This document shows, one piece after another, positions 4,135 through 39,643 of a stretch of 39,677 bases of DNA. The translations under genes were made by a program, and so were the position numbers. Origin of the DNA: Acidimicrobiia bacterium. Lineage in GTDB: Bacteria > Actinomycetota > Acidimicrobiia > Acidimicrobiales > CATQHL01. Every line of letters begins with the position of its first letter. Position 1 is the first letter of the stretch. The notes beneath the pieces were generated by a model. That model worked only from the letters and a program-made list of their open reading frames with translations. It was not told where the DNA came from and did not search any database. Where the stretch lies: NCBI GenBank assembly GCA_021296435.1, contig JAGWAK010000003.1, positions 1 through 39,677 on the forward strand, written 5' to 3'.

Positions 4135-4608
4135 TCACCCGCGGCGCTTCGCCTGCTCCGCGCTGACCGACTCGATGCGGCGCCGCAACTGGTCCAGCGC
4201 CGCCTGCATGATGCGCGACTCCGCCCGGCGCTTGACGAACCCGGGCACGGCCACCGCCAGTTCGGCCGCGAGCGAGTAGGTGATGAGAGTCTTGCCCTCG
4301 TCGTCGGCCGACGGCGCCAACTCGTACTCGCCGTCCAGGTGGCGAACCTGGTCACCCTCCACAAGCCGCCACGCCACCCGCAACGGGTTGGAGCCGTAGA
4401 AGTACTTGAGTGTGTAGGTCACGCTGCGGCCCATCGCCGCCGCCCGGAATGCCACGAGACCCCCCGCGCCGCTGTTGTCCCGCCGCAGGACGCGGGCCTC
4501 CTTGATGTCCGGCGCCCACTGCGGGTACTGCTCGAAGTCCACAACGACGTCGAAGCAGTCCGACGGCGAGGCGTTCACCAGCATCCGCCGGGTCGAGAAC
4601 TCAACCAT
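4135..4608 (-). CDS. SRPBCC (START/polyketide cyclase-dehydrase-like) family protein
   Basis: MVEFSTRRMLVNASPSDCFDVVVDFEQYPQWAP... is a typical SRPBCC N-terminus. ATG at 4608 overlaps the upstream stop by 8 nt. The longest ORF runs to 4662. Confidence 0.72.
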   Translation of the reverse strand: MVEFSTRRMLVNASPSDCFDVVVDFEQYPQWAPDIKEARVLRRDNSGAGGLVAFRAAAMGRSVTYTLKYFYGSNPLRVAWRLVEGDQVRHLDGEYELAPSADDEGKTLITYSLAAELAVAVPGFVKRRAESRIMQAALDQLRRRIESVSAEQAKRRG

Positions 4609-5089
4609 CTCGCCTCCGCTGGCTGTGCGGGGAACGGCTGGGGAACTCGCCGTGGTTGGCACCCCACAGAGCTATTGCGCCCAAGCCGTACACACCCGCA
4701 AGAATACCGAATGCGAGCGGGCCAAAGGGGCGAACCGCCGCGCCGGTGAGTCCGGCGGCGAACTGCAACCCGGCGGCGAGCCGCAATTCGACGCGCACCG
4801 ACCGGGGCGCTCCGGGCATTCCGCCGAAGGCTGCCATCGTCGACACCTGCTCGGCGCGGCTCCGGCGCACGGCGGTGGCGTAGGCCCGCCCGAAGGCGAG
4901 ACTCCCGGCGCCGAACAGCACCAGCGCCACCACCTGGGCGGCCCCGCCGGCTTGATCGGGCCACACCGCACCCAGCACGATCGCGACGCACAGCACCGCT
5001 GTGCCGGCGCGGGAGGCCACGAGCAGCCACTGCCACGGCGGGGCGCCGCCGGAAGCCGGCGCCGGGGAATTCAGCACAGGGCGCGGCAC
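4601..5089 (-). CDS. Small integral membrane protein, unknown function
   Basis: 162 aa with several hydrophobic helices (WLLVASRAGTAVLCVAIVLGAV, VVALVLFGAGSLAF, FGILAGVYGLGAIALW). It sits in frame-consistent tandem with its neighbours. No recognisable motif. Confidence 0.5.
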   Translation of the reverse strand: MPRPVLNSPAPASGGAPPWQWLLVASRAGTAVLCVAIVLGAVWPDQAGGAAQVVALVLFGAGSLAFGRAYATAVRRSRAEQVSTMAAFGGMPGAPRSVRVELRLAAGLQFAAGLTGAAVRPFGPLAFGILAGVYGLGAIALWGANHGEFPSRSPHSQRRRDG

Positions 5090-6213
5090 CGGTCCCCCGC
5101 CAGGCGGTCGTAGCTGAACTGTGCCGCGGCGCGCCGGCGCGCCGCGGCGCCCATGCGGCGCCGACCCACAGGATCGTCGAGCAGGGTCGCCAGGGTGTCG
5201 GCCACGGTGGGATCGGTGACCACCAGCCCGCTGGTGCCGTGCTCGACGGCTTCAGCTGCTCCCCCGCTATCGCCGGCCACCTGCGCCACCCCGGCGGCCG
5301 CCGCCTCCAGGAAGACGATCCCGAATCCCTCCTGCTCGAGGCCGCCCCAGCGCCTGCGACACAGCATGGCGAACAGGTCGGCTGCGCCGTACAGATCGGC
5401 CAACTCCCTCTCGGCGACCCGCCCCACCAAGCGCGCCGGCGCGTCGGCGCGGCGCACGAGCCGCTCCAGTCTCCCGCTGTCCCTTCCCGCTCCGGCGATG
5501 CACAGGCGTAGGTCCGGCCGGCCGGGTGCCAGGCGGGCCACCGCCTCGATCAGCCTGTCCATACCCTTGCGGGGCACCAGCCGGCTGACACAGAGCACGA
5601 GGGTCTCGCCGTCACCCACACCGAGGCGGCGGCGCGCTTCCCGCCGATGTTCGCCGGACAGCGGTACGAAGCGCCCGACGTCGACGCCCGGCGGCACGTA
5701 GTGATCCGCCGCCATGTCGGGACACAGCCGCCGCGCCTCGCCGGCCGCGTAGCGGCTGGCGGAGATCACCACCTGGGCACTCGCGAGGGTTCGCCGGAGG
5801 GCTCCCGCGGCGAGCGGCAGGCGCGCCGGCACCGTCACCTCGGCGCCGTGCAGCACGACCCCGTAGGGCACGCCCAGGCGCGGCCCCAGGACCCCCACGG
5901 GGACGGCCGGATCGAATACGACCAACTCGGCGCCGGTGGAGTCCAGCAGGTCGCGGATCTCCGCCAGCACCAACGGCGTGGGCAGCAGGAAGGAGGCCGC
6001 ACTGCGCACGATGGGGTACGCCTCCCCGGCGTCGAAGGCGGCGGCATCGGGGTGCGGGCGGGTCAGGACACAGAACAGATCGGGGGGCAGCCGCCGCCAG
6101 AGTTCCCAGAGGTAGTTCTGGATCCCACCGACCTTCGGCGGGTAGTCGTTGGTGACCAGCAAGTGGCGGCGAGGGCGAGGCTCACCGCCGGCTGATGCGG
6201 GCGGCGAGCTCAC
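5071..6213 (-). CDS. GT4-family (GT-B) glycosyltransferase, PimB/mannosyltransferase-like
   Basis: LLVTNDYPPKVGGIQNYLWEL N-terminus and the C-terminal EGFGIVFLEAAAAGV...GG..E motif. The start overlaps the queG stop (ATGA). Confidence 0.85.
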   Translation of the reverse strand: MSSPPASAGGEPRPRRHLLVTNDYPPKVGGIQNYLWELWRRLPPDLFCVLTRPHPDAAAFDAGEAYPIVRSAASFLLPTPLVLAEIRDLLDSTGAELVVFDPAVPVGVLGPRLGVPYGVVLHGAEVTVPARLPLAAGALRRTLASAQVVISASRYAAGEARRLCPDMAADHYVPPGVDVGRFVPLSGEHRREARRRLGVGDGETLVLCVSRLVPRKGMDRLIEAVARLAPGRPDLRLCIAGAGRDSGRLERLVRRADAPARLVGRVAERELADLYGAADLFAMLCRRRWGGLEQEGFGIVFLEAAAAGVAQVAGDSGGAAEAVEHGTSGLVVTDPTVADTLATLLDDPVGRRRMGAAARRRAAAQFSYDRLAGDRCRALC

Positions 6214-7304
6214 GAGCCGTCCGCCGTGCCATCCCCGTGGCCGCCTCCCAGGCCGGCGGTGGGTGCGGGCACAGACTCCGGTTCCAGCCCCAGGCGCCTC
6301 GCCGCCCAGGCCGCGTGGCGAGCCAGCATCCGGTCGGGATGCCGCTGGTAGCGTCGCAGCGTCCCGACGACCTCGACATCGCCGCCATCGGCGGTGTTAC
6401 CGAGCACGACGAGGGCGTTGCGCCGAAGATAGCGAGGGTCGCGGGCCGGGATGTACCAGCGCCCGTGACGCTCCATGAGTTCCTCGTCGCCGGCGCTCAG
6501 AAGGTCCAGCACATCCACCGAGGCCTGCTCACCGGGGTCCGCCGCCTGTGCCATGCGCCGGTTGGGCGGGCAAACCTCCTGGCAGTCGTCACAGCCGTAC
6601 AACCGGTCCCCGAGTGCCTCCCGGAACTCCGTCGGGAAGTCGCCGGTGGCCTGCAGCAACCACGCAAGGCAGCGGCGGGCATCGACGACTCCTGGAGCCA
6701 CGATCGCGCCTGTCGGGCAGCCGTCCAGGCAGCGGCGGCAGGGACCACAACCGTCGGGCACCCGCTCGCCGGTGGGCGGCAGTGCCGCATCGGTGACCAC
6801 CGATCCCAGCACGACCCAACTTCCGGAGTTCTCCAGCAGCAGATTGCTGTTCTTGCCGTAGTGGCCCAGACCGGCTCTGCGCGCAGCCTCCCGGTCGACC
6901 AGGGCGTTGTCGTCGGCCACCACGACGGCCCGGTGCCCGTGATCGGTCAACACCCGCACCACGACCCCGAGGGCGGACCGCAGCGCGCCGTAGACGTCAT
7001 CGCTGGCGTAGCGGGCAACCCTCGCCGTCGGACGACCCGGGACGGGCTCCGGGGCCGCGGCACGGGCGTAATTCAGCGCCCCCACCACCAGGGCGGCCGC
7101 CCCCGGAAGGATCCGTGCGGGGTCGGTGGAGCGCTCCGGGTTGCGGTAGGTGAACTGCATGCCGCCGTGGTGACCCTGTGCCTTGCGGCGGTGGAGAATG
7201 CGCCGCGTGCTCTCGAAGACCTCCACCGGCGCCACACCCACGGCGGTCAGTCCGGCTCGCTGCCCCGCTTCCAGAACCTCACGTTGCAGACCCACCGACG
7301 GCAT
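6210..7304 (-). CDS. queG: tRNA epoxyqueuosine(34) reductase
   Basis: GHYGKNSNLL, two 4Fe-4S motifs (CGPCRRCLDGCPTGA and CDDCQEVCPPN) and a HEAT-like C-terminus. I chose ATG at 7304 (MPSVGLQREVLEAG...) because it aligns with QueG N-termini. The 571-aa ORF to 7925 overlaps the upstream gene and is rejected. Confidence 0.83.
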   Translation of the reverse strand: MPSVGLQREVLEAGQRAGLTAVGVAPVEVFESTRRILHRRKAQGHHGGMQFTYRNPERSTDPARILPGAAALVVGALNYARAAAPEPVPGRPTARVARYASDDVYGALRSALGVVVRVLTDHGHRAVVVADDNALVDREAARRAGLGHYGKNSNLLLENSGSWVVLGSVVTDAALPPTGERVPDGCGPCRRCLDGCPTGAIVAPGVVDARRCLAWLLQATGDFPTEFREALGDRLYGCDDCQEVCPPNRRMAQAADPGEQASVDVLDLLSAGDEELMERHGRWYIPARDPRYLRRNALVVLGNTADGGDVEVVGTLRRYQRHPDRMLARHAAWAARRLGLEPESVPAPTAGLGGGHGDGTADGS

Positions 7305-7443
7305 GTCCCCCGCCGGTTCCTCCCCGCTCGGGCGGTGCACGGCGCACGCCGGTGCGAGCCGCACCGCGCCGTCGTACCCCGCGATACCTACCGCTGTCAC
7401 CCCTTGAGCGTAGGCCTCACCGAGACCTCGATGGCCCTTACCG

Positions 7444-10400
7444 CTACCCGGAGACCTCCGTGGCGGGTGCCAGATCCAGCCGGGCCCGGCGCCGCTGCTC
7501 GTAGAGGCCGAGGGCGTGGAGGGGGAAGTACTGCCGGTACAGGCCGTAGTCCAGAATCGCCGTGCGGAAGAACACTCCGGACCCGTCCTGGCGGGGCCAT
7601 CCCCCATCGGTCTCCTGGGTGTCCAGCAGGAACCGGGCACCCTGGGAAATCGCCGTCCAATTCGAATCGTCGGCCTCGAGAAGAGCGAGCATCGCCCACG
7701 CGGTCTGGATGACCTGACTCTCGGTATGCGCCACGTATCGACCGGCCAGGCAGCCGTTGTGGTGCTCGCCCCATCCCCCGTCGGGCCGCTGGCGATCCAC
7801 CAGCCACCGGCATGCCCGGCGCAGCGCCGGATCACCGGGGCGGGCTCCGGCGGCAAGCAGACCTCTGACCCCGAAGAAGGTGCCGTAGATGAACTGAACC
7901 CCCCAGACGCCGCGCCACGACCCATCGCTTTCCTGGCTCCGGCGGAGCCAAACCTCGCCCCGTGAGACCGCGGTCGTGACCTCCGGATTCGCGACCTCCC
8001 CGAAGTGCTCCCTGCAAGCGGTCAACGCGGCGAGGCACGACGAGGTGCACTCGACATAGGACCGCTCGGTCATCGACTCACCAAACATCTCGGCCGGGTT
8101 CAGCCATTCGAGGCCGACCGCAGAGCGCCGCGCCTCATAGCTGCCGAACCCGCCGTCGCGGTTCTGACCACGCAGCATGAAGCGAACCGCATCGCCGAGC
8201 ATTGTCGTGCTCGCGGCGCCGCAGTCGGCAGCGAACATCCCGAGCACCGCCTCCGCGGTGCAGTCGGTCACCGGCCAGCCATGCCAACTCCCGGCGAGAC
8301 ACCAGCCGCCCTTGGGGTCGGTCCGGTAGGCCTCGTCGAATCCTTCGAAGCTGGTATCGATCTGTTGCCGCCCCAGGAAGTCGAACCCGCGCCGCCGTGC
8401 GCTCCCGACGCCGTCGAAGTCCGGCACGGTCGCCAGCGCCTGCAGGGAGAACCCGGTATCCCACGAGGCGGTTCTGGCTCCGCTGACGCGCGTCCCGCCC
8501 TCCTCGTCCTCCCAGATCCAGCCGTCGAGTCGCGCCAGAGCCTGCTGGCAGTCGGTGTCATTCGGGTCGCGCAGCCACAGGGCGAGAATGTTGAGGAAGC
8601 CACTCACCGGAGAGATGCTCCGATGGGTGGTCGTCTGCAATTCCCACCTGATGTGCCGGACGATCGACTCGGTACATCGGGCCCGCCGACCCTCGGTGTG
8701 GAACCGTTCGTACCACAGCGCAAGCCCGAGGCCGGTTCGGAGCCACACACTGGGTCGGGCGAAGAGGTCGCCGTCCCGCAGGCGATTGCGGCCCGCCTTG
8801 AAATCCACGTTGTCGAAACCCTGAGGAAACAACTCCTCCTGTATGGCGGCGATCGCGGGCGTGACGGGCGCGCGGAACCGGAGCGGGTAGATGGCCGCCA
8901 TCGCCATGTAGATGAGCCGAGTGTGGCAGTACCACTTCGAAGGGTGTAACGCCATCCAGCGTGGCAGGCTCCACAGTTCCGGCAGAACGGCGTTGACGCC
9001 TCGCCAGTCGTAGAGGCCGACGAGCGCCAGCCAGAACTTCCCCCAAGTCGGGATGCTCAGAACCCCTTCTGCCTGCAGGAATCGCCGGGCCGGTTCGATC
9101 GATGGGTCATCCGGCTCGACGCCGAGCAATCGCGCCGCGACATAGACCAGGGTGGTGACGAACAGGTGGGGCGATGAGTGCTCGTGCAAACCCCACGAAC
9201 CGTCTTCGAGGCGGGATCGCTCGAAGTAGCGCAGCACGAGCCGGCGCCGGTCAGGGTCCAACGGCCGTCCCAGAACGTGGTGCAGCAGCACGTACTGCGC
9301 CGTGAGCATGGGACACCACGCCATCTCGCTTTCCCAGGCACCGTCGGCACCCTGGAGACTCACCAACCGCGCGCTTGCGTTCTTCAGCGCCTTGCCGGCA
9401 TCGGGTGACGCGACCTCCTCCGGGCGGCTGGGCCGGAGCTCCCCCGCTCGCGAGGGCATGGACATCAGGAACCCGCGAGCCAAGGAATCCCGAGCTCGTT
9501 GATCCTTCTGTCCACCGGCGTTGCGCGCTCTGCGCAACTGCCGCACCCCGCGGAGAACCCACCCGACGCGCACCGACAGCGCCCGCACGATGTCGCGGGC
9601 CCGACGCCAGGCGATCCGGTCGCAGGATCTCGGAAGCTCGCTGACCATCGCCCGGGTCGCCATCGCCCCACACGCCAGACTCAAACTGGCAATGGATGTG
9701 TTCTCACAGGCGAGCAAGCCGATGGTCCGGTCGCGGACCGCTCGACTCTCCCGCCAGCGCCGGTAGACCGCGTGCCTGAGCGCCACGCTCTCGACCCGAT
9801 GATCCGCGAAGACCTCGTACAGCCCCATGGCGAGGAGTTCCGGTGCGCGGGTCGCCCGGAGTCGCCGATTGGTGAAGTCGCGAAAGTCCCGTCCTTCGGC
9901 CAGTGCGAGCGCATCACCGAAGCCGAGGGTCATTCCCACCGCCGTAAGCGGGTGGTAATGCCCGGCCGCATCCCCGATGAGCACCCGCCGTGGGCTCCCG
10001 TAGGTGGCGCGCGGCCTCAGCGCATTGGCCGCCGCGAGGAATCTCCGTGCCCGCAGGGCCTCGACGAACGCAGGCCTGAGTGTTGCCGGCATCCAGCCGG
10101 CGTACGAGTCCGACAGCAAGGCAACCAGGTCCCGCGGTGAGTACCCCAATGGGACGTCGACGATTACCCGAACCGAATCGTCTCCCAGGCGATAGATGAG
10201 AATCGGACCCGGCCCGCCGCAGACGACATGCCCATAGCCCTCCAGTGGCAACGTCACCCCTCTCAGTGCGATCCCCATCATCCGCGAGCAGTTCCTCGGA
10301 CTCGTCCACAGGCCCAATGAGCGACGCACGGTCGAGGCGCGGCCATCCGCACCGACGATCAGCGCGGCCTCAAGGGATTCATCGGCGCCGTGACGGGTGA

Positions 10401-10863
10401 ACGTGACACGATGGTCTTCGACGGCCCGCACACGCGCATGCAGCACGAAGTCGACACCCGGCTCCTCCTCGACGGCTTCACGCAGGTGCGAGACCAGTGC
10501 CTCGTGTTCGCATACCAAGCCGAGAGATCCGTCCGGGTACGGAAGCACGATCGGCTCCGACCGGTCTTCGGGAAACACCGCAAATCCCTTGCCGTCGGAG
10601 CTCCGCGGCTGCGTATCGAGCTCGATCCCGAAGTCTCGGAGTGTGCGCAGAGCGGGGGGATGGAGCCACTCGCCGGCGAGTCGTTTGGAGACATTGGGGT
10701 TCGCCTCGAGCAGAGCCACCGAGGCGCCTCGACGCGCCTGAGCGAGCGCGCAGAGGCTTCCGACCGGACCCGCGCCGACGACGACGACGTCGTAACTCCG
10801 GGCCCCGGCGCCGCTCATCGGTAGATGCCCGCCCGCGAGCGCCGGCGGCAACGGAACCGACAC
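7444..10863 (-). CDS. Fusion protein: squalene monooxygenase (epoxidase)-like FAD domain plus oxidosqualene cyclase-type triterpene cyclase domain
   Basis: Single open frame of 1139 aa. The N-terminal part has YDVVVVGAGPVGS, GADGRAS and GDAAGHYHPLTAVGMT (the squalene-epoxidase-family signature). The C-terminal part has at least 6 QW-type repeats and VTDCTAE (the OSC form of the catalytic acid). An alternative ATG start lies at 10818. Confidence 0.85.
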   Translation of the reverse strand: MSVPLPPALAGGHLPMSGAGARSYDVVVVGAGPVGSLCALAQARRGASVALLEANPNVSKRLAGEWLHPPALRTLRDFGIELDTQPRSSDGKGFAVFPEDRSEPIVLPYPDGSLGLVCEHEALVSHLREAVEEEPGVDFVLHARVRAVEDHRVTFTRHGADESLEAALIVGADGRASTVRRSLGLWTSPRNCSRMMGIALRGVTLPLEGYGHVVCGGPGPILIYRLGDDSVRVIVDVPLGYSPRDLVALLSDSYAGWMPATLRPAFVEALRARRFLAAANALRPRATYGSPRRVLIGDAAGHYHPLTAVGMTLGFGDALALAEGRDFRDFTNRRLRATRAPELLAMGLYEVFADHRVESVALRHAVYRRWRESRAVRDRTIGLLACENTSIASLSLACGAMATRAMVSELPRSCDRIAWRRARDIVRALSVRVGWVLRGVRQLRRARNAGGQKDQRARDSLARGFLMSMPSRAGELRPSRPEEVASPDAGKALKNASARLVSLQGADGAWESEMAWCPMLTAQYVLLHHVLGRPLDPDRRRLVLRYFERSRLEDGSWGLHEHSSPHLFVTTLVYVAARLLGVEPDDPSIEPARRFLQAEGVLSIPTWGKFWLALVGLYDWRGVNAVLPELWSLPRWMALHPSKWYCHTRLIYMAMAAIYPLRFRAPVTPAIAAIQEELFPQGFDNVDFKAGRNRLRDGDLFARPSVWLRTGLGLALWYERFHTEGRRARCTESIVRHIRWELQTTTHRSISPVSGFLNILALWLRDPNDTDCQQALARLDGWIWEDEEGGTRVSGARTASWDTGFSLQALATVPDFDGVGSARRRGFDFLGRQQIDTSFEGFDEAYRTDPKGGWCLAGSWHGWPVTDCTAEAVLGMFAADCGAASTTMLGDAVRFMLRGQNRDGGFGSYEARRSAVGLEWLNPAEMFGESMTERSYVECTSSCLAALTACREHFGEVANPEVTTAVSRGEVWLRRSQESDGSWRGVWGVQFIYGTFFGVRGLLAAGARPGDPALRRACRWLVDRQRPDGGWGEHHNGCLAGRYVAHTESQVIQTAWAMLALLEADDSNWTAISQGARFLLDTQETDGGWPRQDGSGVFFRTAILDYGLYRQYFPLHALGLYEQRRRARLDLAPATEVSG

Positions 10864-15567: not shown

Positions 15568-15856
15568 AGCTGTGCCGCTGGCACGGCGAATTGTGACGGG
15601 CAGGCTAACGAGCCCGCGCCGCGCCCTCGCCGCCGAGGCTGTGACATCGGCCACAGCAGGTGAACCGACGGAGAGGGGGCGGAGCCACATGGCGTGCCGA
15701 TTGGCCGGAAGGACCGCGAGAGGTATACACTAGGCGTCGCGACCAAGTCGTCCTTCGGAGGGGATGGCGGGTCTGGAGAGAATCTCGCTGATCCCGGCTG
15801 CTCCAACAGTCCCAGACCCGCACCCTCCACCACTAGCCCGCTCACAGGGCATTCGG

Positions 15857-15931
15857 TGGGCGCTGGCGGACTCGAACCGCCGACCTCTTCCTTGTAAGGG
15901 AAGTGCTCTGGACCAACTGAGCTAAGCGCCC
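15857..15931 (-). tRNA. tRNA-Val (anticodon TAC)
   Basis: The reverse complement folds as a cloverleaf: acceptor GGGCGCT/AGCGCCC, D-arm GCTCAGTTGGTCCAGAGC, anticodon arm CTTCC-CTTACAA-GGAAG, T-arm GGCGGTTCGAGTCCGCC. CCA is not encoded. Confidence 0.9.
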
Positions 15932-17344: not shown

Positions 17345-17390
17345 CCCGCCGCGGCGCGGTTGCGGAGGCCCGGATCGGTACCTCGGGGCG

Positions 17391-17463
17391 TGGGCTCGGT
17401 GGGGATCGAACCCACGACCAAACGATTATGAGTCGTCTGCTCTGACCACTGAGCTACGAGCCC
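17391..17463 (-). tRNA. tRNA with CAT anticodon (elongator Met, or an Ile2 lysidine-type tRNA)
   Basis: The reverse complement is GGGCTCGTAGCTCAGTGGTCAGAGCAGACGACTCATAATCGTTTGGTCGTGGGTTCGATCCCCACCGAGCCCA. The 1:72 position is a G-C pair and the anticodon stem lacks a triple G-C, so it is not an initiator. Confidence 0.88.
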
Positions 17464-17548
17464 GGCGACAACCTAGCCCCCCGGTCGCAGCACGCCCTAC
17501 CGTCGTCGCGGCGCTGTCACGGTGGTGCTGTGACGGCGGCCTCGCAAG

Positions 17549-17621
17549 CTCCGGGGGTGGGGCTCGAACCCACGACAAACGGCTTAACAGGCCGGCGCTC
17601 TGCCAACTGAGCTACCCCGGA
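17549..17621 (-). tRNA. tRNA-Asn (anticodon GTT)
   Basis: The reverse complement is TCCGGGGTAGCTCAGTTGGCAGAGCGCCGGCCTGTTAAGCCGTTTGTCGTGGGTTCGAGCCCCACCCCGGA plus a discriminator base. Cloverleaf with anticodon loop CTGTTAA. Confidence 0.9.
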
Positions 17622-30841: not shown

Positions 30842-31708
30842 CTAGGCGATCCTACCGCCCTCGTCTCCGGCGACCGGCGGGTGAGGCCCGGGGCTTCGCC
30901 GGCCATTCGAACGGCCGCCCGGCTGACCGGGCTCCCGGAGCATGTCGCGAATCATGCGCAGCGCGATCACGATGAGCAGGCCGGCGAAGAGGACCGAGGA
31001 GACCGCCGAGGGGATCACACCCGCCAGCAGCCCGCCTCCGAACGCCGACAGCATGCCGCCGGCCCCTATCACCAGCGCGCCCCGCAGGTCGACATTGTCG
31101 TTGCGCAGGTTGCGCAGCGTCCCGACGATGGCTGTCGGGAGCACCACCAGCAGCGAGGTTCCCTTGGCGGTCACGTCGCCCAACTCGAAGAGCAGGACGA
31201 GCGCCGGAACCACGATCACGCCTCCTCCCACACCCATGAGACCCGCCACCAGGCCGACCAGCACGCCACACCCCACGAGACCGAACGCCACAGCGAGAGT
31301 CAGCGAGAGTTCGCCGGTGGACTCGGCCGTGCCGGCCAGCATGCGCCCCGCAGTGACCGCCAAGAGCACCACGAAGGCCACCTGCAGCGTGCGGATGCGC
31401 ACACGGTTGAGCATCTCCACCCCCGCCAGTACGCCGAGCCCCGAGCCAGCGAAGATCAGAGCCGCGGCGACGACGTCCACCGCCTCATTCAGCGCGTAGG
31501 CGACAACGCCGGCGGCGGCGAAGAGCGCGGAGGTGGCGAGCGAAGTGCCGTGCGCCACCCGCCGGCGAAAGCCCCCCAGCAGCATCAGACCGGGGGCGAT
31601 GAAAATCCCCCCACCCACACCGAACAACCCCGCGATGAAACCGGCGGCCACGCCGACACCGGGCAGAACCCACCGCGGGCGAGCCTGCTCGCCGGGGGCT
31701 CCTGTCAC
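30842..31708 (-). CDS. TauE/SafE-family anion (sulfite/sulfonate) exporter
   Basis: Two repeats of the LFGVGGG / LMGVGGGV motif in a protein with about 8 TM helices. GTG at 31708 overlaps the upstream stop (GTGA). The 388-aa extension is rejected. Confidence 0.8.
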   Translation of the reverse strand: MTGAPGEQARPRWVLPGVGVAAGFIAGLFGVGGGIFIAPGLMLLGGFRRRVAHGTSLATSALFAAAGVVAYALNEAVDVVAAALIFAGSGLGVLAGVEMLNRVRIRTLQVAFVVLLAVTAGRMLAGTAESTGELSLTLAVAFGLVGCGVLVGLVAGLMGVGGGVIVVPALVLLFELGDVTAKGTSLLVVLPTAIVGTLRNLRNDNVDLRGALVIGAGGMLSAFGGGLLAGVIPSAVSSVLFAGLLIVIALRMIRDMLREPGQPGGRSNGRRSPGPHPPVAGDEGGRIA

Positions 31709-32622
31709 GCGGAGGAGCTCTCGTCCCGATCGGTTGCCGGATCCGCCTCCGTCCGGCCCTCGCGACGCCGGCCGCCTGCATACTCGAAGCCGAAGCGACC
31801 CTTGATGCAGAGGTGCCCGGAGGTGACCTCGTGATCGTCCGGCGAGGTGACCCGGAAGATCTCGTCGTCCTGGGTGTGCAACTCCAGGTTGCAGCCGACG
31901 CCGCAGTAGGGACAGACCGTCGTGGTCACCGCCTGGGCCTCGGGGTCGAAACCACCCGATTCGCGGAGGTCGAATTCCCGGGTGAAGATGAGTGCTCCCG
32001 TGGGACACACCCCGATGCAGTTGCCGCAGTAGACACAGGCCGACTCGGGCAACTCGACGTCGTACTCGGTGGATATGCGGGCATCGAATCCGCGACCCGC
32101 CACGGCGATCGCAAACGTGTACTGGGCCTCGGTGCCGCAGGCGTCAACACACTTGTAGCAGAGCACACAACGGTCGTAGTCCCGGACGTAGAGCTCGTCG
32201 TGGCGCCGCACCGGCTCGCTCACCCGTGCCCGGTCCGGCCCGTGGCGTTCGGGGTCGGTTCCGTACTCCTCGAGCCAGCGCAGGATGTCCGCCTCGGCGC
32301 GGGAGAGATCCACCGAGGAGGCAAGCAACTCCAGGACCATCCGGCGCGAGGCCCGCACCCGGTCGCCGCCCGTGCGGATCTCCATGCCCTCGGTCACCCG
32401 GCGTGAGCAGGCCGGTACCAAGGTGCGCGATCCCTCCAACTCCACAACACAGACCCGGCAGGCGTTGACGGGTGTAATCGTCGGGGCCCAGCAGATCGTC
32501 GGCACCTCCACCCCGGCGTCGCGGCAGACGTCCAGGATCGTGCTGCCCTCGGCGGCGGCCCGTTCGGTGCCGTCGATGCGTACCGTGACCTTGCGCCGGG
32601 GGATCGGCACCGGGGTGCTCAT
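31705..32622 (-). CDS. NuoG/FdhA N-terminal-type iron-sulfur protein (2Fe-2S + 2x[4Fe-4S] + Mo/W-bisMGD-type 4Fe-4S domain) lacking a molybdopterin catalytic domain
   Basis: VTVRIDG...CRVCVVEL...PACS (2Fe-2S), CVLCYKCVDAC and CVYCGNCIGVCPTGAL (ferredoxin-type), and CPYCGVGCNL...GHLCIKGRFGFEY. The protein ends about 30 aa after that. Confidence 0.8.
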   Translation of the reverse strand: MSTPVPIPRRKVTVRIDGTERAAAEGSTILDVCRDAGVEVPTICWAPTITPVNACRVCVVELEGSRTLVPACSRRVTEGMEIRTGGDRVRASRRMVLELLASSVDLSRAEADILRWLEEYGTDPERHGPDRARVSEPVRRHDELYVRDYDRCVLCYKCVDACGTEAQYTFAIAVAGRGFDARISTEYDVELPESACVYCGNCIGVCPTGALIFTREFDLRESGGFDPEAQAVTTTVCPYCGVGCNLELHTQDDEIFRVTSPDDHEVTSGHLCIKGRFGFEYAGGRRREGRTEADPATDRDESSSA

Positions 32623-34385
32623 GGCCGCGCTCCGGCGCCGTCGAGAAGTCCCAGACGCCGGGCGGAGCCCACCGCCGAGGCCGCCGTGTGTCCCAGCCCG
32701 CAGATCGAGGCGTCGCTCATCACCGTGTCCAGGTCGTCAAGCAGGTCGGTGTCACCCGGTTGCGCCGAGCCGGAGCGCAGGCGCACGATCGCCTCGTTCT
32801 GGCGGACGGTACCCACCCGGCACGGCACGCACTGCCCGCAGGACTCGTCACGAAAGAAGGCGGTGATCCGCTCCACGATGTCGCCGATGTCCGCGGCGCC
32901 GTCGAAGACGGTGACCGCCCCGGAACCCAGCGTGAGGTCGGCTGCTCGAACGTCCTCAAATGTCAAGGGCACGTCGCTCGCCCCGGGAGACACGAAGACT
33001 CCCGCGGCCCCGCCCAGCAGCACGGCCCCGGGAGAGGCCGGGGCGCCGGCTAGTTCCAGCAGCTCGCCGAGCGACGTGCCGAACGGCACCTCGTAGACGC
33101 CCGGACCGCTCACGTCGCCGGCCACCGAGAACAGTTTCGTGCCGGGACTCTCGGCGGTGCCCACCGCGCGGAACCCCGCCGCGCCGCAGCTGAGGATCAC
33201 CGGCACATTGTGGAGCGTCTCGACGTTGTTGACGACGGTGGGCCGGCCGAACAGACCCACCTCGGTGGGGAACGGCGGCTTCGACCGGGGCTCGCCCCGG
33301 TAGCCCTCCAGCGAGTTGAACAGCGCCGTCTCCTCACCGCAGATGTAGGCGCCGGCCCCTCGGCGAACTTCGAGGTCGAAGCTCAGGCCGCTGCCGGCCA
33401 CGTCGGACCCCAGCAGCCCGCGGTGGCGCGCCTGGTTGATTGCGTCGACGATCCGCTCCTCGGCGGTGGGGTACTCGCCCCTGATGTAGATGTAGCCCTG
33501 CGCGGCGCCGACGGTCAACCCGGCGATCGTCATGGATTCGACCAGGGCGAAGGGATCGCCCTCCAGCAGCACCCGATCCTTGAAGGTGCCCGGCTCGGAC
33601 TCGTCCGCATTGCACACCACGTAGCGTTCCCGCTGAGCCGAGGCCGCCACGGCCCGCCACTTCACGCCGGTCGGGAAAGCAGCTCCGCCCCTGCCGCGCA
33701 GCCCCGAGTCGGCGATCTCGCGCAGCACCGCCTCCGGACCCATGGCCAGCGCGGTCCGCAGCGCCTGGTACCCGCCGTGCGCCCGGTACTCCTCCAGGCT
33801 GGTCGGATCCACGACGCCGATGCGGCCCGTCAACCAGGCGGGCCCGGCGGCGACCACCAGCGGTGGGGCCTCTGTCGCACCCTCGGCTGCCAGAGCGCCG
33901 GCGACCGATCCCGTGACCGTCAAGCGGGCCGCGTCGTCCCCCGCGCGCTGCACGAACAGGGCAGGGGCCCGGTCGCACTGGCCGAGGCACGGGCTCGGAT
34001 GCACACCGACCGGCTCCTCGCCGTCGTGACCGGTGTCCGCCGCGGGATCGCGGTACCCGGGGTGGACGCGGCAGGCAATGTCGTCGCAGACGTGGACGAC
34101 TGTTCGCGGACCCGCCTCGGTGCGCAGCAGGGCGTAGAACGTGGCGACCCCGAAAGCCTCGGCACGGGGCACCTCGAGTCGCGCGCAGAGCTCTGCCAGC
34201 GCTTCGGGGCTGATCCAGCCGATCCCGTCCTGCAGGGCGTGCAGCGACGGCAGCAACAAGTGCCGGCGATCGGGCCCTCGCCGGATCACCCGGCTGTCGA
34301 CAGGGTCGTAGCGACGCCCGACGGTCCCGTCCAGAACACGCACCTCCGCCGGTGTTGGGGCGCCGACGGAGGGCCTCGATTCCAT
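32619..34385 (-). CDS. NuoE-NuoF fusion-type NAD(H)-binding flavoprotein (FdsB/HoxF-like diaphorase subunit)
   Basis: N-terminal thioredoxin-like 2Fe-2S domain (HVCDDIAC...SPCLGQCDRAP), then GRGGAAFPTGVKW (FMN), ESEPGTFKDR, and ESCGQCVPCRVG...ICGLG (4Fe-4S). Confidence 0.85.
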   Translation of the reverse strand: MESRPSVGAPTPAEVRVLDGTVGRRYDPVDSRVIRRGPDRRHLLLPSLHALQDGIGWISPEALAELCARLEVPRAEAFGVATFYALLRTEAGPRTVVHVCDDIACRVHPGYRDPAADTGHDGEEPVGVHPSPCLGQCDRAPALFVQRAGDDAARLTVTGSVAGALAAEGATEAPPLVVAAGPAWLTGRIGVVDPTSLEEYRAHGGYQALRTALAMGPEAVLREIADSGLRGRGGAAFPTGVKWRAVAASAQRERYVVCNADESEPGTFKDRVLLEGDPFALVESMTIAGLTVGAAQGYIYIRGEYPTAEERIVDAINQARHRGLLGSDVAGSGLSFDLEVRRGAGAYICGEETALFNSLEGYRGEPRSKPPFPTEVGLFGRPTVVNNVETLHNVPVILSCGAAGFRAVGTAESPGTKLFSVAGDVSGPGVYEVPFGTSLGELLELAGAPASPGAVLLGGAAGVFVSPGASDVPLTFEDVRAADLTLGSGAVTVFDGAADIGDIVERITAFFRDESCGQCVPCRVGTVRQNEAIVRLRSGSAQPGDTDLLDDLDTVMSDASICGLGHTAASAVGSARRLGLLDGAGARP

Positions 34386-34452
34386 CGTTCCAGCCTAGAA
34401 GTGCGGCTCGGCGTCGCAGAGTCAGCCCCGCTGCGCCGCGGCGCGACTCCGC

Positions 34453-36843
34453 TCAGGCTGTCGAATGCCCCCTGAGCAGGGCGCGCAGGCGCGGCGGGCT
34501 CAGGTTGGACTGCGTGATCGACACACCCAGGGGTACCAGAGCGTCGTGCACAGCGGCAGCGAGCGCCGCCGGTGTCACGATGATCGCCCCCTCGCCTGCC
34601 CCCCGGAAGCCGCCGATCAACCCCGACGGCGTCTCGCGGTGGATGATTCGCGCCCGCACCGCGTCGCCGAATGTGGGGATCATGTAATCCAGCAGGGTCG
34701 AGGTCAGCGGTTGCCCGTTCTCGTCGTAGTGGATCTCCTCGAAGAACGTCTGCCCCACAGCCTGCGCCACCGCTCCGTGGATCTGCCCGTCCAGCAGCAC
34801 GCCGTCGATCACGGTCCCGCAGTCGTGGACGATCGTCAGGTCCTGCACCGTCACGACCCCAGTGGCCGCTTCGACCTCCACGACCGCGGCCGCCGCCGCC
34901 GTGGAATAGGTGGCGGCCACGTTCATCTTTCCCCGCTCGTCGGGGAACGGGCTGGTGTTGCCCGGGTCGTACCCCACCACGACCGACAACCCCGGATCCA
35001 TGCCGGGCGGCAGCAGGAACGTGTGCAGATACGCCACGGCAGCGATCTGGGCGAACGGGATCGCCGCCTCCCCCAGCCGGAAGAAGCCGTCGGAGGCCTC
35101 GATCTGCTCGGCGGGGGCTTCCAGCATTCCCGCGGCGATGGCCGCCATCTTGTCTCGCACCTGCTGTGCCGCCTTGATGACCGCTCCGCCACCCATGACC
35201 GCCGAACGGCTCCCCCACGTGCCGATGCCGTAGGGCAGCGCGGCAGTGTCGCCGTCGCTGACCTCGACGTCGTCAGGGCTGATACCGAGGGTTTCCGCGG
35301 CCACCTTGGCGTAGATGGTCTCGTGTCCCTGTCCCTGGGACTTGGTGCCGACGGCCACGTTCACCCTGCCGTCGGGCTGAACGGTCAGCATCGCCATCTC
35401 ATAACCACCGAAGCGGCCGGCCAGGCCGTGGATGTTGGGCGCCGTGGGCTCCACCATCTGGGCGATCCCCACACCCACGAGGCGGCCCGCCGTCCTCGCC
35501 TCGTCGCGGGCTCCGCAGGCGGCGTCGTAATCCACGGCCTCGAGAAGCTCGGTGAGCTGGTCGCCGAAACTACCGGTGTCGAGGACCGAGCCTGTCGCCG
35601 TCACGTAGGGCCGCGGCTCGTCGGGGATCATGTTCGCCCGGCGAATCGTGACAGGATCGATGCCGAGCCGCTCCCCCACCAGGTCCAGGACCCGCTCCAT
35701 CAGGAAGATGCCCTGCGGCTGGCCGTAACCGCGGTAGCCGCCCATCGGGCCCTTGTTGGTCGCCACGCAGCGCAACTCGAAGGCGTAGTCCTGGAGGTCG
35801 TAGCAGTTCGGAACCACGCTCGTGGTCACGATCGCCGGCGCACAACCCAGGATGTACAACTCCGGAGACCCGACGTCCACGACGAAGTTGGCCCGCAGCC
35901 CAAGGATCTTGCCGTCGTCGCGGTAGGCCACCTCCACCTCGTGGACCTGCTGGCGGGAGTGCAGCCCGGAGAGCAGGTTCTCGGTGCGGTCCTGCTGCCA
36001 GACGACCGGGTGGCGCACCCGCATCGCCAGCACCGCCACCAGCACCTCCTCGCGCATGAAGTGCGCCTTGTTGCCGAAGCCGCCCCCCATGTCGGGCGCC
36101 ACGACCCTGATCTTGGCCTCGCTCAGCCCGGAAATGTCCGAGATCACGGTGCGCAACGTGTGCGGGACCTGAGTCGATACGTACATTTCGAGGCGCCCCG
36201 TGGCCGGGTCGAACTCGCCGAGCGCACCGTGGCCCTCCATCGGTAGGCCGGAGATACGGTGATGGGTGAAGCGCTCCTGCAGGACCCCGTCGGCGCCGGC
36301 GAACGCCGCCTCGATGTCGCCATGGCTGCCCGGCATGAACAGAAAGACGTTGTCGCCCCAGTCCTCGTACAGCAGCGGTGCCTCAGGATCCAAGCCGGCC
36401 TCCGCGTCGCTGACCGCGGGCAGTTCTTCGTAGTCCACCTCGATGAGCTCGAGCGCGTCCTCGGCGATGTACCTGCTGTCGGCGACGACCGCGGCAACCG
36501 GCTCGCCCACGAACCGCACCTTGTCGGTGGCGAGCACCGACCATGTGATCTGCCTCAGCGTCGGGATCATGGGGAGGTGATGGCTGAACTCGCCGGTTTC
36601 GGCCGCCAGTTCGCCCCCCGTGAACACCCCGATGACCCCGGGGAGGGTCAGCGCACCGGAACCGTCGATGTGGCGGATCCGGGCGTGCGCCACGGGGCTG
36701 CGCAGGATGGCGATGTGCTTCAGGTCGGGCCGGTACACGTCGCCGAGAAACTCACCCTGACCGCATAGCAGCCGGGTGTCCTCCTTGCGCCGGAGGGCGG
36801 CGCCCGTCTCCGCCGGCGCCTGTGGCGGCGCGGTGACGCTCAC
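34453..36843 (-). CDS. Xanthine dehydrogenase/CoxL-family molybdopterin-binding large subunit (not a CO dehydrogenase)
   Basis: 796 aa. GGGFGNK, an active-site loop GGYRGYGQPQG (neither VAYRCSFR nor AYRGAGR), and the C-terminal catalytic-Glu motif FRGAGEGA. The GTG at 36843 overlaps the small-subunit stop (GTGA). Confidence 0.87.
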   Translation of the reverse strand: MSVTAPPQAPAETGAALRRKEDTRLLCGQGEFLGDVYRPDLKHIAILRSPVAHARIRHIDGSGALTLPGVIGVFTGGELAAETGEFSHHLPMIPTLRQITWSVLATDKVRFVGEPVAAVVADSRYIAEDALELIEVDYEELPAVSDAEAGLDPEAPLLYEDWGDNVFLFMPGSHGDIEAAFAGADGVLQERFTHHRISGLPMEGHGALGEFDPATGRLEMYVSTQVPHTLRTVISDISGLSEAKIRVVAPDMGGGFGNKAHFMREEVLVAVLAMRVRHPVVWQQDRTENLLSGLHSRQQVHEVEVAYRDDGKILGLRANFVVDVGSPELYILGCAPAIVTTSVVPNCYDLQDYAFELRCVATNKGPMGGYRGYGQPQGIFLMERVLDLVGERLGIDPVTIRRANMIPDEPRPYVTATGSVLDTGSFGDQLTELLEAVDYDAACGARDEARTAGRLVGVGIAQMVEPTAPNIHGLAGRFGGYEMAMLTVQPDGRVNVAVGTKSQGQGHETIYAKVAAETLGISPDDVEVSDGDTAALPYGIGTWGSRSAVMGGGAVIKAAQQVRDKMAAIAAGMLEAPAEQIEASDGFFRLGEAAIPFAQIAAVAYLHTFLLPPGMDPGLSVVVGYDPGNTSPFPDERGKMNVAATYSTAAAAAVVEVEAATGVVTVQDLTIVHDCGTVIDGVLLDGQIHGAVAQAVGQTFFEEIHYDENGQPLTSTLLDYMIPTFGDAVRARIIHRETPSGLIGGFRGAGEGAIIVTPAALAAAVHDALVPLGVSITQSNLSPPRLRALLRGHSTA

Positions 36844-37313
36844 AGCTGCTCCTCGGCAGTGCCGGCGACGGCCTCGAGGGCCTTGACAATGTTGACGTAT
36901 CCGGTACAGCGGCAGAGGTTGCCCGACATCCACTCCTCGATCCGGTCCCGACTCGGGTGGGGATCGGTCTCGAAGAGTTCCAGTGCCGTCAGCACCATTC
37001 CCGGTGTGCAGAAGCCGCACTGAAGGCCGTGGTGGGTCGACAGCGCCTGCTGGATGGGGTGCAACGACCCCGGAGAACCCACCCCCTCGATGGTGCGCAC
37101 CTCCGAGCCGCCCACCTGCACGGTGAACATGAGACAGGACCGCACACCACATCCGTCGACCAGGACCGTGCAAGCGCCGCAGGAGCCCTGCTCGCATCCC
37201 GCATGAGCCCCTGTCATGGCAAGGCGGTCGCGCAGCGTGTCCAGCAGCAACTCGCGCGGCTCGACCTCCACCTCCGCGACCTCGCCGTTGAGCGAGAATC
37301 GGACCTTCGTCAT
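36840..37313 (-). CDS. (2Fe-2S)-binding small subunit of the molybdenum hydroxylase (CoxS-like)
   Basis: GCEQGSCGACTV (plant-type cluster) and CGFCTPGM...CRCTGY (second cluster). ATG lies 9 nt after GAGGAG. Confidence 0.9.
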   Translation of the reverse strand: MTKVRFSLNGEVAEVEVEPRELLLDTLRDRLAMTGAHAGCEQGSCGACTVLVDGCGVRSCLMFTVQVGGSEVRTIEGVGSPGSLHPIQQALSTHHGLQCGFCTPGMVLTALELFETDPHPSRDRIEEWMSGNLCRCTGYVNIVKALEAVAGTAEEQL

Positions 37314-37366
37314 GCCGGCTCACTCCTCATTGCGGCTCCTCCTCGTCTACTTCGGTGTGCGTGTGC

Positions 37367-38248
37367 TCAGGCGCCACCGGCCGAGCCGGCCCGTGCCCAG
37401 GCTCTCCGCACGGCGTCGGCGGCCAGCACGGCGGCGAGTTCACGCCGGTAGTCCTTCGAACCGTGCACGTCGCCGGGAGGATCCGCCGCCGCGGCGACCC
37501 GCCTCCCCAGTTCCTCCGCCGCGCCGTCGGTCAGGCTGGACTCTCCCCGCAGGAAGTCCCCCGCGGCACTGAGATCCATCGGCGTCGGGCCGAGACCGCA
37601 ACCGGCGACCCGCACCTGCTCGCAGGCCCCGAAACCATCGCGGTGCAGGATGACGGCCACCCCTGCTGTGGCGAAGTCACCGTGGCGGCGGACGAACTCA
37701 CTGAACGCGCCGCCGTCGCCGTCGCGGTGTGCGGGGACCTCGACGGTCGTCAGCAACTCGTCGGGCTCGAGGCCGGTCGTGAAGGGACCGGCGAACAACT
37801 CGGCGGCGGGAATGGCCCGCTCGCTCCCCGTGCTGGCGACGATGACACGACCCTCCAGCGCCACCAGCAGCGCCGGCAGTTCGGCGACCGGATCGGCGTG
37901 GGCGAGGCTTCCGCCGAGTGTCCCCCGGTTGCGGATCCCGACGTGGCCGATGAGCTCCGCCACTTCCGCGAAGATCGGGGCCTTCTGGCGCACGTCGGGG
38001 TCGGTCTCCAGGAAGCGATGGCGGCACATGGCGCCGAACCGCAGCGTGCCGTTGTGGGATTCGAAACCCGACAGCGCTCCCAGGTGGTTCACGTCCACGA
38101 GCAGGCTCGGACGCGCCAGGCGCAGGTTCATCAGCGGCACCAGGCTCTGCCCGCCGGCCAGCACCCGGGAGTCCTCGGCGCTGGCGAGAGCCTCGGTGGC
38201 CTCGCCGACCGATCCGGCAGCGACGTAGTCGAACCGCGGGGGTTTCAC
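37367..38248 (-). CDS. FAD-binding medium subunit of the molybdenum hydroxylase (CoxM-like)
   Basis: FDY..AGS..EA, LAGGQSLVPLMNLRLARP, GTLGGSLAHADP, and a CO_deh_flav_C-like tail. The GTG at 38248 overlaps the Rieske gene stop (GTGA). The 415-aa extension is rejected. Confidence 0.85.
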   Translation of the reverse strand: MKPPRFDYVAAGSVGEATEALASAEDSRVLAGGQSLVPLMNLRLARPSLLVDVNHLGALSGFESHNGTLRFGAMCRHRFLETDPDVRQKAPIFAEVAELIGHVGIRNRGTLGGSLAHADPVAELPALLVALEGRVIVASTGSERAIPAAELFAGPFTTGLEPDELLTTVEVPAHRDGDGGAFSEFVRRHGDFATAGVAVILHRDGFGACEQVRVAGCGLGPTPMDLSAAGDFLRGESSLTDGAAEELGRRVAAAADPPGDVHGSKDYRRELAAVLAADAVRRAWARAGSAGGA

Positions 38249-39474: not shown

Positions 39475-39643
39475 CACACTCACCTCCTGTTCCGTTTAGC
39501 CCCTGCAGCGCCGTGGACCGCTGGTCAGGCCACGACCGGGGCCACACCACGCAACAAGCTAAACTCGCCGGTCACGTTCGGGCGGCGACGTTAGCAGCCG
39601 TCCGAATGCGCTGGGGAAGCTCGACGACGGAGGAATTCCGCAC
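39475..39643. promoter_or_regulatory. Probable divergent control region upstream of the Rieske/Mo-hydroxylase array
   Basis: 169-nt gap between the minus-strand start and a possible plus-strand start. It contains the direct repeat GGCCAC-N6-GGCCAC (39528-39545) and the inverted repeat CGTGG...CCACG (39512-39534). No function has been demonstrated. Confidence 0.3.

Follow-up and report, generated by a model that had tools for sequence, protein, structure and literature searches.

Can a single bacterial gene encode both steps that lead from squalene to a protosterol, and what would such a gene do where it stands outside any steroid gene cluster? This question is raised by a gene on the minus strand of contig JAGWAK010000003.1 from an Acidimicrobiia bacterium, of which positions 1 to 39,677 were analyzed here (a stretch of 39.7 kb, called the window). 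In one chain, the gene joins an N-terminal flavoprotein of the squalene epoxidase (SE) type, also called squalene monooxygenase (SMO), to a C-terminal oxidosqualene cyclase (OSC). Judged from its sequence, it quite probably encodes a bifunctional membrane-surface enzyme that would convert squalene via oxidosqualene to a tetracyclic protosterol, as a member of one tight SMO/OSC family spread by horizontal gene transfer (HGT). The first-pass annotation of this DNA had framed the fusion as novel, and that framing does not hold: fused proteins of this kind appear in Mohanty 2020, Brown 2023, and Kelly 2022, the exact protein is deposited, and hundreds of fused homologs exist. Both the fusion and its occurrence in sponge-associated Acidimicrobiia were already known. 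The accompanying remark that no natural fusion had been characterized still appears to be true, as no biochemical test of the fused enzyme was found in the open-access papers and bioRxiv.

The open reading frame (ORF) list of the window gives a frame of 1139 aa at 7444-10863 (-), starting at a GTG and free of stop codons, so the uninterrupted minus-strand frame described in the first-pass annotation stands. Its GTG start is probably not the true one. The homologs of the fused family are about 1124 aa long with the N terminus MSGA..., and the translation from the ATG at 10818 was 100% identical by BLASTP to GenBank MCE2530938.1 (P0122), "MAG: FAD-dependent monooxygenase [Acidimicrobiia bacterium]". 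Because the homologs and this deposited protein begin with MSGA..., the start was placed at ATG 10818, which is likelier to be the true one. The positions given earlier for YDVVVVGAGPVGS, GDAAGHYHPLTAVGMT, and VTDCTAE (Table 1) agree with the start-codon arithmetic, and GADGRAS and the six QW-type repeats were all found in the translation. The comparison set comprised 83 copies: 80 from GTDB species genomes, Mb-scale "chromosome" records among them, 2 from ENA contigs, and that of the window. All 83 carry an unbroken ORF of 1111 to 1179 aa with identical architecture.

The GenBank label of MCE2530938.1 names an "FAD-dependent monooxygenase" only. The cyclase half was missed, probably because the leading cyclase model, TIGR03463, falls short of its cutoff (724 versus 851 bits). 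In GenBank, partial copies from the fused family carry the name "2,3-oxidosqualene cyclase" or "squalene--hopene cyclase."

The C-terminal half is a class II triterpene cyclase of the OSC type. In Pfam, SQHop_cyclase_N (183.8 bits; cutoff, 26.2) and SQHop_cyclase_C (169.9 bits; cutoff, 26.1) matched residues 494 to 787 and 801 to 1122 of the 1139-aa ORF, giving two alpha/alpha-toroid cyclase domains with QW repeats. Among the NCBIfam models, TIGR03463 (osq_cycl) ranked first by far, with 724.1 bits over profile positions 2 to 633 of 634, and TIGR01787 reached 492 bits, above its cutoff of 322.7. The squalene-hopene cyclase (SHC) model TIGR01507 (hopene_cyclase) reached 254.5 bits against a cutoff of 431.1, and the DxDD(TA) motif was absent, the corresponding stretch reading VTDCTAE. 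Among solved structures, human lanosterol synthase (1W6K) matched the C half with 430 bits, compared with 184 bits for the Alicyclobacillus SHC. The first-pass assignment to OSC rather than SHC is supported, with TIGR03463 and TIGR01787, 1W6K, and VTDCTAE all in agreement.

The alignment of the cyclase half covered human OSC, 12 further members of the fused family, 4 fused proteins of greater divergence, and 11 unfused OSCs. VTDCTAE was invariant across the fused family, with Asp852 (1124-aa numbering, used below) as the catalytic Asp. In human OSC numbering, the catalytic and deprotonation residues D455, C456, C533, H232, and Y503 were retained, as were the active-site aromatics W192, Y237, W387, F521, W581, Y587, F696, and Y704. 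Human position 453 is Val (Val850) throughout the family, the state of lanosterol-type enzymes. In the tested bacteria, Val versus Ile at this position correlates fully with lanosterol versus cycloartenol (Wei 2016, PMC4919349). Since the V453 equivalent is Val, lanosterol would be the predicted product. M98, Y230, T233, A381, H449, and S524 depart from human OSC and are common to unfused bacterial OSCs; the alignment marks these departures as a trait of the bacterial group, not of the fusion.

One further active-site position varies within the family. The equivalent of human Phe444 is Phe in 78 of the 83 copies and Leu in the other 5, which are the window, L004, L007, L008, and L026, all from Acidimicrobiia. 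The closest relatives of the window (L001 to L003) have Phe. This Phe/Leu alternation among very close Acidimicrobiia looks like a natural active-site polymorphism, judging from the alignment. Mutation of the equivalent Phe445 of yeast ERG7 changes the product spectrum.

The cyclase half might be an OSC with a product other than lanosterol, such as cycloartenol, parkeol, or an arborane-type or truncated product, especially in the Leu copy. We consider this unlikely. The residues at positions 98, 230, 233, 381, 449, and 524 are indeed unlike those of animal and fungal lanosterol synthases, but the same pattern is found in unfused bacterial OSCs. In the three-residue rule that Wei 2016 quotes, H449 corresponds to cycloartenol synthase, but of the three residues, only V453 tracked the product in the bacterial OSCs tested, and V453 points to lanosterol (Wei 2016). 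As for F444L in the window, its nearest relatives switch between Phe and Leu at this position without other changes. In addition, most family members adjoin CYP51 and ERG24, whose substrates are 14-methyl sterols of the lanosterol type.

For the N-terminal half, the SE model (PF08491) scored 80.9 bits (cutoff, 20.1) over residues 166 to 389 of the 1139-aa ORF, and FAD_binding_3 scored 72.7 bits (cutoff, 22) over residues 24 to 322. The best PDB match was human squalene monooxygenase (6C6N; 94.8 bits), followed by a PqsL-like protein at 37.8 bits. The UbiH-family model TIGR01988 stayed at 90.9 bits against a cutoff of 224.65, and its equivalogs all stayed below 82 bits against cutoffs above 380. 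Three flavoprotein-monooxygenase fingerprints are present, invariant in the family, and aligned with human SQLE: VVVGAGPVGS (GxGxxG), GADGRAS (DG), and GDAAGHYHPLTAVGMT (GD, in the SE form GDAxNxRHPLTGGGMT). In the family alignment (A1), D10, V14, G15, G17, P18, V19, G20, and S21 of the Rossmann motif and G282 to G286, Y288 to P290, A293, G295, and T297 of the GD motif were invariant, and GDAAGHYHPLTAVGMT paired with GDAYNMRHPLTGGGMT of human SQLE. With SE above its cutoff, the UbiH models below theirs, 6C6N as the best match, and a GD motif of the SE form, the earlier reading of this half as a squalene monooxygenase, not a UbiH/PHBH-type hydroxylase, was supported. The profile searches suggested there for both halves gave SE, FAD_binding_3, and SQHop_cyclase_N/C over their cutoffs, with the OSC models ranked top.

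The relatives of the N domain bear on its role as well. In a full-protein search of 1.84 billion cluster representatives, unfused SE-like proteins were returned at 42 to 48% identity, and homologs at 38 to 43% identity to the N domain were joined to squalene synthase instead (P0271, P0282, P0290, P0324, and P0336). Fusion of one flavoprotein lineage either to a squalene-making or to an oxidosqualene-consuming enzyme is the pattern to be expected of an SE. Altogether, the sequence evidence supports the N domain as a squalene epoxidase. It is very unlikely that the domain is some other FAD monooxygenase, such as a hydroxylase of sterols or quinones, that came to be linked to an OSC. Generic FAD_binding_3 (72.7 bits) and UbiH-family (90.9 bits) models match too, but the SE score is fourfold its cutoff, and the UbiH and other NCBIfam hydroxylase models fall far under theirs. 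The identity to human SQLE is low, but human SQLE leads all other solved flavoproteins by 57 bits, and the GD motif has the SE form. SQM-like genes are kept in some bacteria without sterol production (Lamb 2020, PMC7947880); here, however, the partners of the lineage, squalene synthase or OSC, are the enzymes that flank the epoxidation step. Moreover, an OSC requires an epoxide supplier, and a separate SE-like ORF cluster was found in 0 of the 53 full upstream sterol operons described below.

In the squalene synthase-linked proteins, the same flavoprotein lineage has entered into another natural fusion, with an N-terminal SE-type monooxygenase and a C-terminal SQS_PSY domain in about 1140 to 1190 aa. 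No mention of this architecture was found in the literature compared here. At L085:1-2425 (GCA_039186435.1), such a fusion heads a sterol cluster in the order SE-SQS, 3-beta-hydroxysteroid dehydrogenase (3-beta-HSD)-like gene, Rieske/VanA_C oxygenase, HMG-CoA reductase, unfused OSC, and sterol methyltransferase.

The SMO/OSC fusion itself is widespread. Full-length fused homologs at 68 to 95% identity form more than 120 protein clusters (90% identity), and over these clusters and 80 GTDB loci, full-length orthology to the fused family extends over at least 97% of the length at 66 to 95% identity. In the GTDB data, with one genome per species, 479 stretches encode a relative; the loci studied were the best 80, all of them fused. 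The search for the same architecture that had been suggested as a check was therefore answered by more than 120 clusters and all of the best 80 of 479 stretches. Among these 80, the host labels span more than 15 orders or classes: Acidimicrobiia, Ca. Binatia, Nitrospirales, Thermodesulfobacteriota, Syntrophobacterales, Bryobacterales, Vicinamibacterales, Opitutales, Nitrospinaceae, Rhodothermales, Longimicrobiales, Chloroflexi, Dehalococcoidia, and many Alpha- and Gammaproteobacteria. Many carrier names point to sponges (Ca. Porisulfidus, Ca. Poriferihabitaceae, Spongia_Bin9, the "lac_sponge" TsSOB, and the SB06xx/APA/RHO/CAR bins). The nearest relatives of the window bear isolate names such as APA_bin_18 and SB0668_bin_6, and the window organism may likewise come from a sponge.

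In a neighbor-joining tree, the sequences grouped by class on a star-like backbone. The GC content of the gene tracked that of the host flanks only partially (r = 0.77, with a compressed range), and the GC content at third codon positions of the fusion gene (0.81) was the lowest of the complete genes in the window. The star-like tree and the GC pattern would fit horizontal spread among phyla, followed by vertical inheritance within classes. The search also returned more divergent SE+OSC fusions at 39 to 51% identity (P0194, P0198, and P0206 were confirmed with Pfam) and unfused OSCs at 40 to 52% identity. No sign of a recent split or fusion was seen in the closest unfused relatives; P0202 lies after an HMG-CoA reductase gene, and P0252 is on a contig too short to judge. 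An apparent 1563-aa "triple fusion" in L022 was rejected as an ORF-calling artifact, an out-of-frame reading across CYP51. A cyclase phylogeny of 2025 kept only triterpenoid cyclases of 600 to 800 aa, a range from which the whole fused family would fall out (PMC12324236).

The neighboring ORFs of the loci were clustered, and representatives were annotated. In 53 loci, the fused gene is the last of an operon comprising an NAD-epimerase/3-beta-HSD gene (SdmB-like), a Rieske+VanA_C gene (SdmA-like), an ERG4/ERG24 reductase gene, a P450 gene (CYP51-like), and SMO/OSC. About 11 further loci have at least ERG24 and CYP51 (total, about 64). The window differs: no ERG24, CYP51, or SdmA/SdmB-like gene was found in its 39.7 kb or within ±10 kb in L001 to L009. 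In the Acidimicrobiia clade of the window, the fusion stands alone between trpD and a queG-like gene. The same trpD/fusion/queG arrangement is seen in the called genes of the 95%-identical ENA contigs L001 and L002, and the ORF-cluster maps of L003 and L005 are consistent with it. A second Acidimicrobiia subclade is likewise without the operon, in a different gene context. Among the best 120 of 2547 hits to CYP51 homologs, none lay on contigs of fusion-bearing Acidimicrobiales. As for traces of mobile elements, no meaningful direct or inverted repeats flank the fusion gene, and no tRNA gene lies within 5 kb of it.

This isolation could mean that the fusion in the Acidimicrobiia clade is a decaying or silent, functionless remnant of a transferred sterol cluster whose partner genes were lost. 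ERG24, CYP51, and SdmAB are absent within ±10 kb in all Acidimicrobiia loci with sufficient flank, and in the window an active-site Phe has been replaced by Leu. However, the frame is intact in every Acidimicrobiia copy examined, the ratio of nonsynonymous to synonymous substitution rates (dN/dS) within the clade is about 0.2 in both halves, and the catalytic residues are kept. The trpD/fusion/queG synteny is also kept in L001 and L002, with L003 and L005 consistent. On this evidence as a whole, a remnant is highly improbable.

The region that joins the two domains contains no Pfam domain, and its residues 390 to 478 carry a net charge of +11. No transmembrane helix was predicted in the protein, and within the linker the highest 19-residue Kyte-Doolittle window was at most 1.46. 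The absence of a transmembrane helix, together with the Arg-rich linker, would fit a peripheral or monotopic membrane enzyme. The median identity of the window to copies across phyla was 68% for the SE domain, 49% for the linker, and 74% for the OSC domain, and the linker holds some conserved residues (family alignment A1). In pairwise comparisons with seven relatives, dN/dS was 0.15 to 0.30 for the SE half, 0.17 to 0.25 for the OSC half, and 0.12 to 0.72 for the linker; both halves are under purifying selection. An AlphaFold2 model built from a shallow 22-sequence family alignment had a mean predicted local distance difference test score (pLDDT) of 59 and a predicted template modeling score (pTM) of 0.41, with low confidence in the linker, and is too poor for statements on domain packing or a channel. 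The window is a metagenome-assembled contig, but the probability that the single ORF is an assembly or binning artifact joining two adjacent genes is negligible given the same unbroken architecture in all 83 copies, which were assembled independently and some of which lie on Mb-scale contigs or "chromosome" records, the fused state of more than 120 protein clusters from NCBI, ENA, and JGI, and the conserved residues inside the linker.

Table 1. Coordinates of the fused gene, its domains and motifs, and the tRNA genes of the window (residues in 1124-aa numbering)
Feature	Position	Strand	Basis or remark
Fused squalene monooxygenase/oxidosqualene cyclase coding sequence	7444..10818	(-)	1124 aa, ATG start, stop codon included; ORF, Pfam, GenBank identity
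15 additional in-frame codons up to GTG	10819..10863	(-)	Probably 5' untranslated; homologs and deposited protein begin at MSGA...
FAD-dependent squalene-epoxidase-type domain, residues 1-374	9697..10818	(-)	Pfam, PDB match, homologs
Rossmann dinucleotide-binding motif YDVVVVGAGPVGS	10756..10794	(-)	Sequence and family alignment
GD-type FAD/substrate motif GDAAGHYHPLTAVGMT, squalene-epoxidase form	9928..9975	(-)	Aligned with human SQLE
Interdomain region, residues 375-478	9385..9696	(-)	Arg-rich; low-confidence helices predicted, without transmembrane segment
Class II triterpene cyclase domain, oxidosqualene-cyclase type, residues 479-1107	7498..9384	(-)	Pfam, NCBIfam, PDB
Catalytic-acid motif VTDCTAE	8251..8271	(-)	V = human V453, D = D455, C = C456; alignment to human OSC
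Leu841 at human OSC Phe444 position (active-site aromatic)	8296..8298	(-)	Alignment
tRNA Val-TAC	15855-15931	(-)	Between IMPase-like gene and sigma-70/dnaG; not adjoining fusion
tRNA Met-CAT	17390-17463	(-)	Between IMPase-like gene and sigma-70/dnaG; not adjoining fusion
tRNA Asn-GTT	17548-17621	(-)	Between IMPase-like gene and sigma-70/dnaG; not adjoining fusion

Together, these features suggest how a bifunctional enzyme could work. At the membrane surface, the N-terminal flavin monooxygenase would use its FAD to convert squalene, O2, and reducing equivalents to (3S)-2,3-oxidosqualene, a squalene supply and an electron donor being presumed. The cyclase domain would then take up the epoxide, protonate it via Asp852 of VTDCTAE, and fold it into a tetracyclic protosterol. 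Lanosterol would be released once a proton is lost near the equivalents of His232 and Tyr503. The fusion would ensure a 1:1 stoichiometry and colocalization of the two activities and may limit the loss or overoxidation of the epoxide. Channeling of the epoxide between the fused domains is plausible. In the Acidimicrobiia clade, the product could be an end product or could be modified by genes elsewhere in the genome.

Several observations weigh against this bifunctional reading. Although TIGR03463 is the top cyclase model, its 724.1 bits lie under the curated cutoff of 851. The likeness of the N domain to characterized SQLE is modest, and the alignment spans residues 9 to 303 only. The Leu in place of the Phe444 equivalent could alter the product of the window copy. 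Squalene synthase, an electron-transfer partner, CYP51, ERG24, and SdmAB are absent within the 39.7-kb window. In addition, the presence of the genes is not proof of sterol production, because Corallococcus coralloides has SE and OSC genes and no detectable sterol (Wei 2016, PMC4919349).

For the Acidimicrobiia clade, a bolder proposal can be made, which we regard as doubtful though conceivable. The fusion there might act independently of the demethylation operon as a stand-alone, self-sufficient "squalene in, protosterol out" module and would yield an unmodified and possibly Leu-altered 4,4,14-trimethyl protosterol or a product passed to the host or other symbionts, with the fusion and its conserved basic linker serving direct hand-over of the epoxide.

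The surroundings of the fusion in the window consist of genes for PFK, an aminotransferase, a ROK kinase, an SRPBCC protein, a GT4 glycosyltransferase, and the queG-like protein on one side and trpD and an FGGY kinase gene on the other, with sigma-70, dnaG, glyS, recO, uppS, and era beyond the FGGY kinase gene. The high GC content of the window produces long spurious or overextended ORFs, such as the 571-aa ORF at 6210-7925 (-), which overlaps the 3' end of the fusion. This ORF is really the queG-like gene of about 396 aa (Fer4_16) at about 6210-7400, whose start lies about 44 nt past the fusion stop codon, as it does in L001. Just downstream of queG are the genes for an SRPBCC/START-like lipid-binding protein (4135-4662 [-]) and the GT4 glycosyltransferase (5071-6213 [-]), in a synteny kept in L001 and L002; a link of these two genes to sterol handling or glycosylation is possible. 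Farther away, a block at 31705-39483 (-) holds a Nuo-like Fe-S/FMN pair, a molybdopterin hydroxylase (956 aa), and the alpha subunit of a Rieske ring-hydroxylating oxygenase (38245-39483). The latter was rejected as a sterol gene, as it is of the Ring_hydroxyl_A type and not the Rieske+VanA_C (SdmA-like) type of the sterol operons.

Other loci of the family showed further unusual genes. GPP34/GOLPH3-cytochrome P450 fusions of about 675 aa lie at L020:13382-15403 (+), L077:13427-15451 (-), L060:7758-9797 (-), and L013:3220-5244 and 4920-7472 (+). They adjoin SMO/OSC in loci without CYP51, also in Binatia-type loci (L013 is labeled Thermodesulfobacteriota). GPP34/GOLPH3 is a eukaryote-style Golgi phosphoinositide-binding domain. 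In L020 and L077, the latter from the Acidimicrobiia subclade lacking the operon, an MMPL transporter with a sterol-sensing domain follows the GPP34-P450 gene. An MMPL/RND protein with a sterol-sensing domain also lies beside a full sterol operon in a metagenome-assembled genome (MAG) of Nitrospirales (L011:14879-17173 [-]) and might serve in sterol transport.

Bacterial sterol synthesis bears on the use of sterane and 24-isopropylcholestane fossils as biomarkers of eukaryotes or sponges, as well as on the origin of eukaryotic sterol synthesis. What seems to be the commonest route to sterols among the bacteria of sponge microbiomes begins with the fused SMO/OSC family, to which the window contributes no enzyme of a new kind. 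The window offers instead a clean, cluster-free copy in which the sufficiency of the fusion, the flux, and the effect of Phe or Leu at the Phe444 position could be tested. Its residual interest lies in a fused enzyme without a reported assay, a stand-alone context within the clade, and a natural Phe/Leu polymorphism at an active-site aromatic.

Among the closest known systems is the msb locus. The fusion was noted as MsbE of this locus (GenBank MT026193) in a gammaproteobacterial symbiont of the sponge Melophlus sarasinorum, where it was called a lanosterol cyclase from the same Val, no expression work being reported (Mohanty 2020, PMC7074536). The msb cluster has five genes, encoding an oxidoreductase (msbA), a Rieske oxygenase (msbB), a reductase (msbC), a demethylase (msbD), and MsbE, and its gene order matches the operon of most fused loci. 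In contrast, the window gene is without these neighbors, and the host phylum differs. QIJ55911.1 (P0102, "uncultured bacterium," 1153 aa), which is 68% identical over 98% of the window protein, is likely MsbE, judging from its name, date, and length.

Natural "fused SMO/OSC homologs" were also recognized in a set of OSCs from bacteria and metagenomes, sponge symbionts included (Brown 2023, PMC10070321). In that study, the fusion is mentioned in the Methods only, the N termini were trimmed for the tree, and the fused enzyme was unassayed; the four demosponge-metagenome OSCs accompanying the tested sterol methyltransferases lie in the bacterial Group 1 clade. In Kelly 2022 (PMC9531527), ERG24-CYP51-lanosterol synthase (LSS) clusters are reported in 115 of 537 Ircinia symbiont MAGs from 10 phyla, including Acidimicrobiia, with phylogenies indicating HGT and, for LSS, an omega of 0.17 as evidence of purifying selection. 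This LSS belongs to the gene family of the window fusion. Its codon alignment, 3765 positions long, fits the length of the fused gene, and the cluster, the incongruent phylogeny, and the low omega are all seen again in the present loci. In the text compared here, the gene is named lanosterol synthase and the epoxidase half is undiscussed. The window copy, unlike that LSS/ERG7, lies outside any steroid gene cluster. The actinobacterial context recognized in the first-pass annotation holds, but its view of this lineage as one not classically linked to sterols is outdated in light of the Acidimicrobiia among those clusters.

In Methylococcus capsulatus (MCA2872 and MCA2873) and other cultured sterol bacteria, the same two reactions and protein families are divided between two polypeptides, and the earlier statement that these enzymes are separate genes in cultured model bacteria still seems correct. 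The window protein is instead one chain with an Arg-rich linker of about 100 aa, and its active-site pattern is that of unfused bacterial OSCs. Human 6C6N and 1W6K are the best solved-structure matches, and the FAD motifs and OSC catalytic residues are conserved in the window protein. However, human SQLE and OSC are separate enzymes of the endoplasmic reticulum, whereas the window protein is without a predicted transmembrane anchor, and its cyclase half differs from human OSC by Y98M, W230Y, C233T, T381A, C449H, and F444L. The SE+SQS_PSY fusions, with a homologous N domain (38 to 43%) and a place within sterol clusters, represent the alternative fusion with a pathway neighbor. There, squalene synthase, which acts before the epoxidase, is the partner, and the OSC is encoded separately; in the window, the partner is the enzyme that follows.

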